A stretch of DNA of 64,000 bases. Source: an uncultured Candidatus Saccharibacteria bacterium. Lineage in GTDB: Bacteria > Patescibacteriota > Andersenbacteria > UBA10190. The notes under the pieces are model-generated. The model ran no database searches, was not told the origin of the DNA, and was given only the letters and a program-made list of their open reading frames with translations. The translations under genes and the position numbers were made by a program. Where the stretch lies: positions 9,806 through 73,805 of the forward strand of contig CAYJKV010000006.1 in assembly GCA_964371255.1 (NCBI GenBank), written 5' to 3'. Of this stretch, positions 18,515 through 21,196 are shown one piece after another. Position 1 is the stretch's first letter. Every line of letters starts with the position of its first letter.

Positions 18515-19117
18515 TCATTCCGCAAAGCGAACCTGAATTTGACGAATAAGCTCGTTATAAAGTCTGACTAGAAAACTGTTCCACTCCATTAGATTTCTAT
18601 CTTTCTCTACGGCTTCAATAATATTAAAGCCAAAGTGAGTGTGTCGTTGGCGCGCCAAGTCTTTATCAATCATGAGCTCATAGAGGTTTGGTGATATCTT
18701 ATCAATTGAATGAGCAAATTTTGCTTCACGAGATTTGTTGCGTTCAAATTCTTCATATATCGCATGATAATCTGCGGCAAGCTGGGAAAGTGCGGCTTCT
18801 CTTTCCGTCACAACCTCATTCTCAGTTTTTTGACGCTTCACAGTTAGAATATCGCCAGTAACTGTTTCGCCAATGTCATGAATGGCAAGCATAAGCAAAA
18901 CCTTGCCAATATCGAGCTCTTTTTCGCCTAGGTATGAGTACAAAAATGTAGCAACAATCGGTAGCGCGCCGATGTGGTCAGCAAGCGACTCGCGCATTAG
19001 ATTGCTGCCAGGTTCTGCTACGCCTTGGCCAACACGTGAAGGGAGATACGGTCCTCGATATACACCAGAATATCGTGCTAGTAAATCAAGCAATTTTGCC
19101 AGGCATTCTTTTTCCAT
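18515..19117 (-). CDS. HD-domain phosphohydrolase (YfbR-like 5'-deoxynucleotidase family)
   Basis: HD motif LMLAIHDIGETVTGD; ~200 aa from the internal Met; the longer ORF (to 19183) would overlap the tRNA 3' exon. Confidence 0.7.
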   Translation of the reverse strand: MEKECLAKLLDLLARYSGVYRGPYLPSRVGQGVAEPGSNLMRESLADHIGALPIVATFLYSYLGEKELDIGKVLLMLAIHDIGETVTGDILTVKRQKTENEVVTEREAALSQLAADYHAIYEEFERNKSREAKFAHSIDKISPNLYELMIDKDLARQRHTHFGFNIIEAVEKDRNLMEWNSFLVRLYNELIRQIQVRFAE

Positions 19118-19156
19118 CTGAAACCAATGTAACGCGTACGCTAAAAAAATAAAGAG

Positions 19157-19535
19157 CTCGCGGGGTCGGACTCGAACCGACAACCTAGTGGTTACATGTA
19201 ACCCATTATTTTCATAATGGCATGGACTATCTCATCACCCTTCCTTAATCAAGAAGGGGCTGGGCGCTTATGTAGGATTATTGTTGGAACTCACCTACTA
19301 GTCTCTACACCGGCCTTCGCCAAAACTTCAAACATGAAGTTTCCCAGCAAAGGATTGGCTCGGGATTGCCCTTCGACTCGTCGTCTGACGACTCGCTCAG
19401 GGTTTCCCCGAATTCACCCAGTTATTCGATCCGCCTCTCGACGGAAAGCTGCTATTTAACCCCCTCAATCCCCCTTATCAGGGAGAAGAAAGACTAATGT
19501 CACAGCCACTTGCTCTGCCATTGAGCTACCCGCGA
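19157..19535 (-). tRNA. tRNA-Asn(GUU) interrupted by an intron in the anticodon loop (exon 1 19502-19535, exon 2 19157-19194)
   Basis: Exons join into a canonical 72-nt tRNA: 7-bp acceptor stem (U1-A72), D arm gctc-aatggca-gagc, anticodon stem agtgg/ccact with loop CU-GUU-AA, variable loop aggtt, T arm gtcgg-ttcgagt-ccgac, discriminator G. Confidence 0.75.
19195..19501 (-). ncRNA. Group I-like self-splicing intron (~307 nt), no ORF
   Basis: 5' exon ends in U, intron ends in G; R-like gtgtagagactagta and S-like gagatagtcc can form P7 (gacta/tagtc); Q-like aatcccgagc; internal hairpin gaaacttcatgtttgaagttt. Confidence 0.65.
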
Positions 19536-19756
19536 ATGTTTTCTCCGCTGATAGCCGCGTGAGCGCGAAGCGCTTTTACGCGGCTACCCGCGAATAAGGC
19601 CTGTTTCCAGGCCTGTCTCTGAATTATTGCTAACCCAGATATCTTTAATACTGTAAAGAACACACCTAAATAAACCCAAACACCCAAACTAGGTGTCAGG
19701 GTAAATAGGTGTGTCAATTGTGGCTAATAATTGCAAAAAATTCAAGCTCCAGGCCG

Positions 19757-21196
19757 TTAAAACTGGAAATAGATGAACTCTCGCCCCATCATCGGCGCAT
19801 TCTCCGACAAAAACACGTACAGTGTCACAAACAGGACCGCCGCCCCATATACCATTTGATTGATCCGCGGCAGCTTCAGCCAGAATAATAAGTCCCTCCG
19901 CCGCCACTGCATTATCTGCGTTAGCAGCAAAATCGCTATTACCAGCACAAAATATAAAATCGTATCGCCAAAACCAAATTTTATTTCCCAATTAGAGAAC
20001 ATGGCCTGCAGCATCTCACCCACTTGCCCAATCGATTTTGCCCGAAAAAACAGCCAGCCAATGGCAGCCAGGTGAAAAAATATAATTATCTTCCCGACCT
20101 GCCATACCCAATACCGTTCCAGTGTCTCCCCTAAGGCCCGTGGCCAAAACCGCTCCATCGCCCGGTGCCCAATCAAGAGCAATCCCTGGTAACCTCCCCA
20201 TATCACGAACGTCCAAGCCGCCCCGTGCCATAATCCCCCAAGCAGCATGGTTATAGCCAGATTCCTTTGTGTCTTCCGCCACCCCTGCCGATTGCCGCCG
20301 AGCGGTATATACAAATAGTCCTTCAGCCAAGTCGATAAACTGATGTGCCACCGCTGCCAAAACTCGCGCGCGTTGCGAGAGAAATATGGCAAATTAAAAT
20401 TCAACATCAGCTCAAACCCCATCAGCTTCGCCAGTCCCCGCGCAATATCCGTATACCCGGAAAAATCGCAGTAGATCTGCCAGGCAAATGCGTACAAGGC
20501 CAGCCACACCTGCGGCCCGTTATATGGCCCGCCCGCAAACACTGGCTCCACTAATGTCGCCAGACTATCCGCCACAATGACCTTCTTAAATAATCCCCAG
20601 CCAATCAAATAAAGCCCCTCAGAAACTTTCCGGTCGCTCAGCCGTCGCGGCTTCATCACTTGCGGCAATAATGATGTGGCCCGCTCGATCGGTCCCGCCA
20701 CCAGCTGCGGAAAGAAAGCGACGAACAAAGCAAAATCAGTCAATTTTCTGGCCGGCTTAAGCTGCCGGCGATAAACGTCAATCGTATAGCTCATCGTCTG
20801 GAAGGTATAAAAAGAAATACCCACGGGCAATATGACGTGCAACGTGAACCCATCCACCCGCCAGCCAAAGACGCTCATTAGCTCCGCCAAACTATCATTG
20901 AAAAAATTGAAATATTTAAAGAAGCCCAGGATCAGTAGACTGGAGCTCATGCTCACCCACAATAAAATCTTTCTTCGCCGCGGCGTTTTAGCTTGATCAA
21001 TTTTCCAGCCAATCACATAATCGATGCCCGTCGACAGCCATATCAGGGACAAGAATCGCCAGTCCCATGACCCGTAAAAAACATAACTGGCCCCCAGCAA
21101 TAAATAATTTTGCCAGCGGTGCGACAAACACAGGTACAGCAAATACACGACGCTAAAGAACAAGAAGAACTCGCTCGTGTTAAAAACTAGCGCCAT
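19757..21196 (-). CDS. MBOAT-family membrane O-acyltransferase (AlgI/DltB-like)
   Basis: Multi-TM protein with conserved region WQRWHISLSTWLKDYLYIPLGGNR...LWHGAAW (MBOAT His). Confidence 0.85.
   Translation of the reverse strand: MALVFNTSEFFLFFSVVYLLYLCLSHRWQNYLLLGASYVFYGSWDWRFLSLIWLSTGIDYVIGWKIDQAKTPRRRKILLWVSMSSSLLILGFFKYFNFFNDSLAELMSVFGWRVDGFTLHVILPVGISFYTFQTMSYTIDVYRRQLKPARKLTDFALFVAFFPQLVAGPIERATSLLPQVMKPRRLSDRKVSEGLYLIGWGLFKKVIVADSLATLVEPVFAGGPYNGPQVWLALYAFAWQIYCDFSGYTDIARGLAKLMGFELMLNFNLPYFSRNAREFWQRWHISLSTWLKDYLYIPLGGNRQGWRKTQRNLAITMLLGGLWHGAAWTFVIWGGYQGLLLIGHRAMERFWPRALGETLERYWVWQVGKIIIFFHLAAIGWLFFRAKSIGQVGEMLQAMFSNWEIKFGFGDTILYFVLVIAILLLTQIMQWRRRDLLFWLKLPRINQMVYGAAVLFVTLYVFLSENAPMMGREFIYFQF

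Follow-up and report, generated by a model that had tools for sequence, protein, structure and literature searches.

A tRNA-Asn(GUU) gene interrupted by a group I intron between anticodon positions 35 and 36 in an Andersenbacteria-like member of the Patescibacteria

The four classical classes of tRNA introns were expanded to 21 by Williams 2020 (bioRxiv 10.1101/2020.01.27.920355), the source that Nakagawa et al. 2026 (mSystems, PMC13011429) cite for the class 'Asn.4Ug', in which the intron lies between anticodon positions 35 and 36. The latter study described 15 tRNA-Asn(GUU) group I introns at this site in 95 complete Patescibacteria genomes, found the class to be enriched in this phylum, and reported that such tRNA genes are missed or misnamed by standard tools (PMC13011429). 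Precise GTP-dependent self-splicing in vitro was demonstrated there for one Asn and one Asp intron, and a mutant in which the terminal guanosine of the intron (omega-G) was changed to C lost exon ligation. Moreover, 25 of the 28 introns at 35/36 were placed in subgroup IA, HNH endonucleases were found to be encoded in four Patescibacteria Asn introns, and Table S5 gives the Asn 35/36 introns of Nitrospirota and Bipolaricaulota as IA1 (PMC13011429). Here, we analysed a 64,000-nt stretch (hereafter the window) of contig CAYJKV010000006.1 from an uncultured member of the Patescibacteria (assembly GCA_964371255.1), whose minus strand carries a tRNA-Asn(GUU) gene split at this same site. In our reading, to which we give a probability of about 0.93, this is a functional Patescibacteria tRNA-Asn(GUU) gene in which a 307-nt group I intron without an open reading frame (ORF) separates U35 from U36, and the intron belongs to a lineage occupying the same site in many bacteria. 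Host, site and phylum are those of a typical published case, and the window thus adds an example rather than a new kind; the statement of the first-pass annotation, made from the sequence alone, that an Asn host would be unusual is outdated in view of the published 'Asn.4Ug' class, which is typical of Patescibacteria (10.1101/2020.01.27.920355; PMC13011429).

The split tRNA-Asn gene and its intron

The gene consists of two exons and the intron between them, located as follows:

19535-19502, minus strand: 5' exon of tRNA-Asn, 34 nt, TCGCGGGTAGCTCAATGGCAGAGCAAGTGGCTGT, ending CUGU (ARAGORN)
19501-19195, minus strand: group I intron, 307 nt, starting with G and ending with omega-G at 19195 (RF00028, covariation, homology)
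19194-19157, minus strand: 3' exon of tRNA-Asn, 38 nt, TAACCACTAGGTTGTCGGTTCGAGTCCGACCCCGCGAG, starting UAA (ARAGORN)

The 5' exon corresponds to tRNA positions 1-35 and comprises the 5' strand of the acceptor stem, the D arm, the 5' strand of the anticodon stem, and C32 U33 G34 U35. The 3' exon provides U36 A37 A38, the 3' strand of the anticodon stem, the variable loop, the T arm, the 3' strand of the acceptor stem and G73, while CCA is not encoded. Once joined, the exons form a canonical cloverleaf with U1-A72, the discriminator base G73 and the anticodon GUU, and ARAGORN called the artificially spliced sequence tRNA-Asn(gtt). When the genomic sequence was searched with the intron option, the same program returned tRNA-Asn(gtt) i(35,307); without this option it did not call the gene, and a tRNA-Ser was its sole call in the whole window. 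The exon and intron coordinates given in the first-pass annotation proved exact when the minus strand was read over 19000-19800, and its description of the joined halves as a canonical tRNA-Asn(GUU) with U1-A72 and G73 agrees with both ARAGORN, including the intron-aware calling that it had proposed, and the cloverleaf.

The intron lies between anticodon positions 35 and 36 (U35/U36) and obeys the U(-1)/omega-G rules, in that the 5' exon ends in U and the intron ends in G. The Rfam model Intron_gpI (RF00028) matched positions 19468-19203 of the minus strand with 71.4 bits (gathering score 50; E=4e-16), covering model positions 1-253 of 253, and this was the only intron match in the window. A blastn search against 50,697 phage records, directed at a phage origin, gave no match.

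The validated Asn intron of GCA_016700035.1 has the same host tRNA, U35/U36 site, U(-1)/omega-G pattern and phylum as the window intron, and the two are about 70% identical over aligned positions. Introns of this type share with the window the internal guide sequence (IGS) GCAGC and the blocks GGGUGAAUU, AAUCCxxAGCC and AGAGACUAG, as well as the P7.1 loop UGAG..CCAACAAUAAU, the blocks AAGCGCCC and GAUGAGAUAGUCC, and a P9 with a GAAA loop. The window intron is the longer of the two (307 nt vs 234 nt), owing to 49 nt inserted in the P1 loop (L1), a 26-nt extension hairpin on P5 and the length of its P6b. An Andersenbacteria-like host was not found in the tables of PMC13011429 available to us.

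To survey homologues, one genome per bacterial or archaeal species was scanned with the core pattern AGAGACUAG…AAGCGCCC…GAUGAGAUAGUCC. The results showed that the intron family is present in at least 120 species-level genomes from many phyla; the source species itself is not among these loci. The host groups listed include Nitrospirales, Acidobacteriota/Aminicenantes, 'Deltaproteobacteria', Rokubacteria, Elusimicrobia, Ignavibacteria, Hormoscilla cyanobacteria and several Patescibacteria lineages. Among the at least 120 loci listed, ARAGORN called 59 as tRNA-Asn(gtt), and exon-based mapping placed 66 in tRNA-Asn at 35/36 with U(-1) and omega-G. The identity of the window intron to these 66 copies, as to four published Asn introns from Patescibacteria, is 64-75%, a range that covers every member compared from outside its own genus. 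As a side observation, the Asn 35/36 family is far commoner in draft genomes (metagenome-assembled genomes, MAGs), with its at least 120 species-level genomes, than the 28 complete-genome cases.

Core structure, covariation and a model of splicing

We then built a full P1-P9 model of the intron, in which a precursor position p corresponds to window coordinate 19536 minus p. Its elements are the following:

19507-19502 with 19452-19447, minus strand: P1, exon G29-U34 (GGCUGU) paired with IGS G84-U89 (GCAGCU), with U34•G84 at the splice site
19501-19453, minus strand: L1 (P1 loop) insert, 49 nt, a hairpin of -16.2 kcal/mol
19445-19430 (p 91-106), minus strand: P2, UCCGUC-GAGA-GGCGGA, with a GNRA loop
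19421-19415 (p 115-121) with 19266-19260 (p 270-276), minus strand: P3, CUGGGUG with CGCCCAG
19411-19309, minus strand: P4-P5-P6 domain, from covariation and folds
19411-19406 with 19365-19360 (p 125-130 with 171-176), minus strand: P4, 99% paired
19402-19399 with 19372-19369 (p 134-137 with 164-167), minus strand: P5, bearing an extension hairpin
19398-19373, minus strand: P5 extension hairpin, 26 nt, strain-specific
19359-19357 with 19311-19309, minus strand: P6, 99% paired (P6, P6a and P6b together are p 177-227)
19353-19348 with 19319-19314, minus strand: P6a, 98.8% paired, with covariation in 6 of 6 pairs
Between the strands of P6a, minus strand: P6b hairpin
19305-19299 with 19229-19224, minus strand: P7, the guanosine-binding helix, G-A(bulge)-GACUA with UAGUCC
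19298-19272 (p 238-264), minus strand: P7.1-like hairpin between P7 and P3', GUAGG, 17-nt loop UGAGUUCCAACAAUAAU, CCUAC
19258-19238 (p 278-298), minus strand: P8 hairpin, -11.5 kcal/mol
19237-19230, minus strand: J8/7, UGAUGAGA
19223-19221 with 19198-19196 (p 313-315 with 338-340), minus strand: P9.0, AUG with CAU, enclosing P9
19220-19203 (p 316-333), minus strand: P9, 7 bp with a GAAA loop
19195 (p G341), minus strand: omega-G, preceded by P9.0

In this model, the final 6 nt of the 5' exon (GGCUGU) form the 5' strand of P1, and P7 pairs G231 and G233-A237 with U307-C312, leaves A232 bulged, and makes a pseudoknot with P3. The R-like, S-like and Q-like strings pointed out in the first-pass annotation turned out to be the P7 5' strand with J6/7, J8/7 with the P7 3' strand, and the P4 3' strand with P6, respectively. 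Its proposal of a 35/36 intron that follows group I splice rules is borne out by the covariance-model match, the intron-aware call, P1, the covariation described below and the homology to an intron that splices in vitro; the Rfam match, the P1-P9 fold and the guide sequence pairing with GGCUGU are three of the checks that it had suggested for the intron.

The structure was examined in an alignment of 68 sequences (the 66 genome copies, the window and one strain variant, A2), with pairs counted for the manual structure. Standard pairs filled 91.8% of the cells of the P1-P9 model, compared with 78.5% in shuffles, and the pairing fell to 34-49% when the partners were slid by 1-3 columns. Changes on both sides were seen at 48 of the 83 pairs, and none of 500 shuffles reached any of the five measures used. 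P2, P6a, P9 and P9.0 covary at nearly every pair, with compensatory changes in 6 of 6 pairs of P2 (97.8% of cells paired), 6 of 7 pairs of P9 (98%) and 3 of 3 pairs of P9.0 (93%), while P3, P4 and P6 are 99-100% paired and show some compensatory changes (P3: 100% paired, two such pairs). The P7.1-like hairpin has compensatory changes in 4 of 5 pairs. The U•G pair at the splice site is present in 68 of 68 homologues, and the P1 helix, which is unable to covary with its fixed exon sequence, is 97% paired. In the tRNA itself, the acceptor and D helices are 100% paired, and the T arm is 99.7% paired with four covarying pairs. A similar picture was obtained from close strains, whose substitutions keep the structure (U•G to C-G in P2 of strain L002 and in P6a) and whose insertions and deletions (indels) all fall in the periphery, namely in the loops L1, P6b and the P5 extension.

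According to this model, splicing would proceed as follows. Transcription would yield a 379-nt precursor, the intron of which would fold into the P3-P9 catalytic core, and P1, made of GGCUGU and the guide GCAGCU, would place a U•G wobble at the splice site. P7 would bind an exogenous guanosine, which would attack the 5' splice site; omega-G (19195), placed by P9.0, would then take the place of this guanosine, and the freed 3'-OH of U35 would attack the 3' splice site. Meanwhile, the exons would be held by the tRNA anticodon stem and possibly also by a 5-bp P10, a part in exon alignment that we infer for both elements. Zaug, McEvoy and Cech reportedly found in 1993, with Anabaena pre-tRNA-Leu, that the anticodon stem aligns the exons in tRNA introns. 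The expected products are a 72-nt tRNA, to which CCA would be added later, and a linear intron. The candidate P10 pairs GGUUA (19462-19458, within the L1 insert) with UAACC of the 3' exon. P10 was also tried as a feature of the whole family and was rejected, as a run of at least 4 bp occurs in only 5 of the 68 members; the 5-bp P10 of the window may tentatively be regarded as a lineage-specific feature.

Relatives, subgroup and loss of the endonuclease gene

The Asn introns of Nitrospirota and Bipolaricaulota (GCA_951812745.1, GCA_004102645.1) have the same site and core architecture as the window intron and are 66-72% identical to it, and they are plainly homologous. They come from other phyla, their L1 and P5/P6 peripheries are short or different, and their P7.1 reads GAGGU/ACCUC rather than GUAGG/CCUAC. 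Another relative is the Patescibacteria tRNA-Phe(GAA) intron at 33/34 (Doudnabacteria GCA_016699995.1; L087, L115, L130, L135), whose P7-P7.1 region is nearly identical to that of the window (GGUGUAGAGACUAGUAGGUGAG..CCAACAAUAAUCCUAC), whereas the host tRNA, the insertion position and the IGS differ. The P7.1 loop motif is common to the validated Asn intron and the Doudnabacteria tRNA-Phe intron, and the identity of the latter to the window intron (70-73%) is as high as that of any Asn-hosted copy outside the window's genus. These data suggest that one intron lineage may have moved between tRNA genes within Patescibacteria. It was also observed that tRNA-Phe(GAA) 33/34 introns occur at the loci L087, L115, L031, L059, L061, L130, L132, L135, L136, L139, L142 and L143, and that the P7-P7.1 of the Phe introns is closer to the window than that of most Asn-hosted copies from other phyla.

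The classical IC3 introns (cyanobacterial/plastid tRNA-Leu(UAA) at 34/35, tRNA-fMet at 33/34, Azoarcus tRNA-Ile and Agrobacterium tRNA-Arg) share with the window intron the general mechanism, a site in the anticodon loop, a small size, and similar consensus sequences in P4/P6 and J6/7-P7. In contrast, they have no hairpin between P7 and P3' and sit in other hosts or positions (Leu 34/35, fMet 33/34, Arg or Ile 36/37). Identity to the IC3 intron of Nostoc tRNA-Leu is only 57% over the shorter sequence, the lowest value of those compared. An IC3 type was considered and rejected: the intron sits in tRNA-Asn at 35/36, it has a hairpin between P7 and P3', and the homologous introns are classified as IA or IA1 (PMC13011429), the lineage being subgroup IA there and IA1 for its Nitrospirota and Bipolaricaulota homologues. 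A hairpin between P7 and P3' is a feature associated with subgroup IA, the putative subgroup of the window intron, in which a 5-bp P7.1-like hairpin lies there.

Scanning of metagenomes with the P7-P7.1 sequence of the window gave 17 loci. The tRNA-Asn intron of L133 and L134 is 81-84% identical to that of the window and contains the same insert in L1, and in four diverged relatives the exons are identical while the introns differ by 5-24%. The locus L129 (contig Ga0075963_107, 6903-7522, minus strand) is an orthologous tRNA-Asn with exons identical to those of the window, and its upstream gene, as in the window, is MBOAT (91.6% amino acid identity); ARAGORN with intron search did not call this tRNA-Asn. 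The L129 intron has the same core as the window intron (76% identity) but is 548 nt long and holds, in its P1 loop, a 110-aa ORF with an HNH-type motif (Pfam HNH E=0.0047, below the cutoff), the last codons of which overlap the IGS. This ORF is clearly homologous to the HNH gene in the Asn intron of GCA_023898525.1 (PMC13011429): in both cases an HNH ORF of about 107-110 aa lies in the P1 loop with its 3' end overlapping the IGS, while in the window probably no more than some 49 nt of such a gene are left.

Local alignment of the L1 insert gave 15 matching nt out of 17 with the L129 ORF and 13 out of 15 with the ORF of GCA_023898525.1; the two matches are collinear and fall in the region coding for 'KDFGLS…GLTR'. 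This local score was reached by 8-11 of 3000 shuffles, whereas aligning the insert globally with the complete endonuclease region of L129 gave no significant score (367 of 1000 shuffles). We hold with moderate confidence, on the strength of these matches, that the 49-nt insert is a remnant of an HNH homing-endonuclease gene. No intact endonuclease ORF exists in the window intron, whose longest sense-strand stop-free stretch has 40 codons and no Pfam match, in agreement with the earlier description of the intron as lacking an ORF. With the endonuclease gene lost and about 49 nt of it kept, the window copy would therefore be vertically inherited and immobile. The L1 hairpin is conserved in at least three related strains (window, L002 and L133). 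Other peripheral parts vary: L002, L133, L134 and L129 lack 24 nt of the P5 extension hairpin that the window has, and P6b of L133 is enlarged by a further insertion of about 36 nt. It seems rather unlikely to us, although worth stating, that the leftover in L1 has been co-opted, its GGUUA giving a perfect 5-bp P10 without counterpart in 63 of the 68 members. If true, these loci and the orthologue that has the endonuclease gene would provide a natural series of homing-endonuclease loss and recruitment of the remains into the ribozyme structure, in an essential single-copy tRNA gene.

Alternative explanations, surroundings and significance

Several points weigh against the reading of a functional gene with a self-splicing IA intron. 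Splicing of the window copy is predicted from a homologue, which carries the in vitro proof. P7 reads the same in all 68 sequences, but the invariance of P7, the P3 3' strand and J8/7 among the homologues follows from the search pattern and is not independent evidence. P8 (55%) and P7.1 (73%) pair poorly in alignment columns because the hairpin lengths vary and the alignment is imperfect there, and the support for P8 is the fold of each single sequence, not column covariation. P10 is not conserved (at most 3 bp in 63 of the 68 family members), and the tentative assignment to IA is drawn from the homology to introns classified in PMC13011429 and from the P7.1-like hairpin. In addition, a scan for sigma-70 sites upstream of tRNA-Asn on the minus strand found no promoter-like site. 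Finally, no second tRNA-Asn gene was found in the 64-kb window, and the sole-copy status of the gene is visible for these 64 kb only, not for the whole genome. Taking the evidence together, we regard the intron as very likely functional, self-splicing and immobile, and the gene as probably the only tRNA-Asn gene of the cell.

A first alternative is a decaying tRNA pseudogene, whose intact-looking core no longer splices while an intron-less tRNA-Asn elsewhere supplies the cell; in its favour, besides the indirect case for splicing, the homing endonuclease gene has already degenerated, and a 58-nt insertion duplicating the tRNA 5' end lies directly upstream. All core helices are intact, however, the substitutions between strains are compensatory or lie in loops, the exons have stayed identical in the four relatives whose introns have diverged, and the window holds no second tRNA-Asn, which makes such a pseudogene very improbable. 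We also considered boundaries shifted by two bases, which would give a tRNA-Thr(UGU) with the intron at 33/34. ARAGORN indeed called seven homologues Thr(tgt) i(33), among the matches listed, and the same ambiguity is documented in PMC13011429; ARAGORN and tFind often make the Thr call in this family. For the window, ARAGORN calls Asn; the shifted intron would end in A (…UUACA), not G, and the Asn reading is therefore unambiguous here. The U1-A72 pair and G73 likewise speak for Asn, the exons closely resemble those of the 66 homologues, the published counterparts of the homologue exons match intron-less tRNA-Asn genes at 86-100%, and the sequenced spliced product of a homologue confirms 35/36 (PMC13011429), so that the Thr alternative retains hardly any probability. 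As the 62 uninterrupted tRNAs of the loci examined include no tRNA-Asn, the boundary check against intron-less genes rests on the comparisons of near-identical exons in PMC13011429.

A last alternative is that the locus encodes small proteins (ORFs 19217-19459, plus strand, and 19526-19717, minus strand) and resembles an RNA only incidentally. ORFs of 80 and 63 aa do exist, and the indel between strains, at 24 nt, would keep a reading frame. Pfam gave no match for either ORF at E<=1, though, 239 of 2000 shuffles had an antisense stop-free run at least as long, and the position of the frame against the conserved blocks varies among homologues, while two independent RNA models and the covariation explain the conservation. 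The coding potential of both ORFs was accordingly rejected and this explanation is effectively refuted, as the first-pass annotation had anticipated in treating the six-frame ORFs as artefacts. The same holds for the 5' extension of the ORF 18515-19183: in an identical contig the HD-domain gene is called from ATG 19117 and not from TTG 19183, and the TTG-extended ORF overlapping the 3' exon is therefore an artefact.

Turning from the preferred reading, a split and functional tRNA-Asn gene, to its surroundings, the MBOAT and RpoD proteins of the window fall into 90%-identity clusters with proteins of Parcubacteria group bacterium GW2011_GWA2_45_14 (KKT93362.1, KKT93367.1) and Candidatus Andersenbacteria, which places the window in a Patescibacteria (CPR) genome, and contigs identical to the window are present in a series of ENA metagenome assemblies. 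The 58-nt insertion directly upstream of the tRNA (19537-19595, minus strand) is absent from the related strain L002/L003. Its first 13 nt, ATTCGCGGGTAGC, exactly repeat the 2 nt that precede the tRNA together with the first 11 nt of the tRNA, and the remaining 45 nt contain an imperfect 27-nt inverted repeat. A repeated element was rejected, as the window has a single copy of the sequence; slippage or a target-site-duplication-like insertion could have produced it. Further upstream, between the MBOAT stop codon and the tRNA, two hairpins on the minus strand (19591-19619 and 19679-19697) resemble terminators for the MBOAT gene; one is GACACCUAG…GGGUGUU, with a U-rich tail after it, and the other is AGGCCUGGAAACAGGCCUU.

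On the other side of the gene, the strain represented by L002:4890-7431 and L003:3933-6474, which has a 100% identical MBOAT, diverges from the window right after the discriminator base of tRNA-Asn (window 19156 downwards); where the window has the HD-domain gene, this strain encodes a large serine recombinase of 505 aa (Resolvase/Recombinase/Zn_ribbon_recom) and an AAA_25 protein. The 3' flank of the intron-bearing tRNA-Asn seems to be a hotspot of integration; the window was also searched for another copy of the tRNA 3' end, as expected at the boundary of an island, and none was found. Two genes downstream of the tRNA, an 865-aa PHP + SMC_N protein (15738-18335, minus strand) matches the PADLOC anti-phage defence model Ppl (E=3.5e-38), and the GC content is 0.39 in 16001-20000 vs about 0.47 elsewhere; this region could be variable defence cargo beside the tRNA. 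A 257-aa ORF at 12839-13612 (plus strand), which adjoins a ParB-like gene at 13679-14599, gave a weak partial match to PADLOC MzaA (E=1.3e-8, about 50 residues only).

The class, the splice site and the self-splicing of these introns are already published, and the present case opens no new question. It adds an Andersenbacteria-like lineage to the known hosts. It also bears on a problem raised in PMC13011429, in that standard tRNA finders miss the gene, the genome would then seem to be without a tRNA-Asn, and its completeness would be underestimated. Overall, the locus and its relatives provide a comparative series at one orthologous site, with a copy containing an endonuclease gene, a copy with a remnant, and strain-level indels in the peripheral loops, and it shows by example how a homing endonuclease is gained, decays and is lost in an intron that is itself hard to lose from a probably single-copy tRNA gene.

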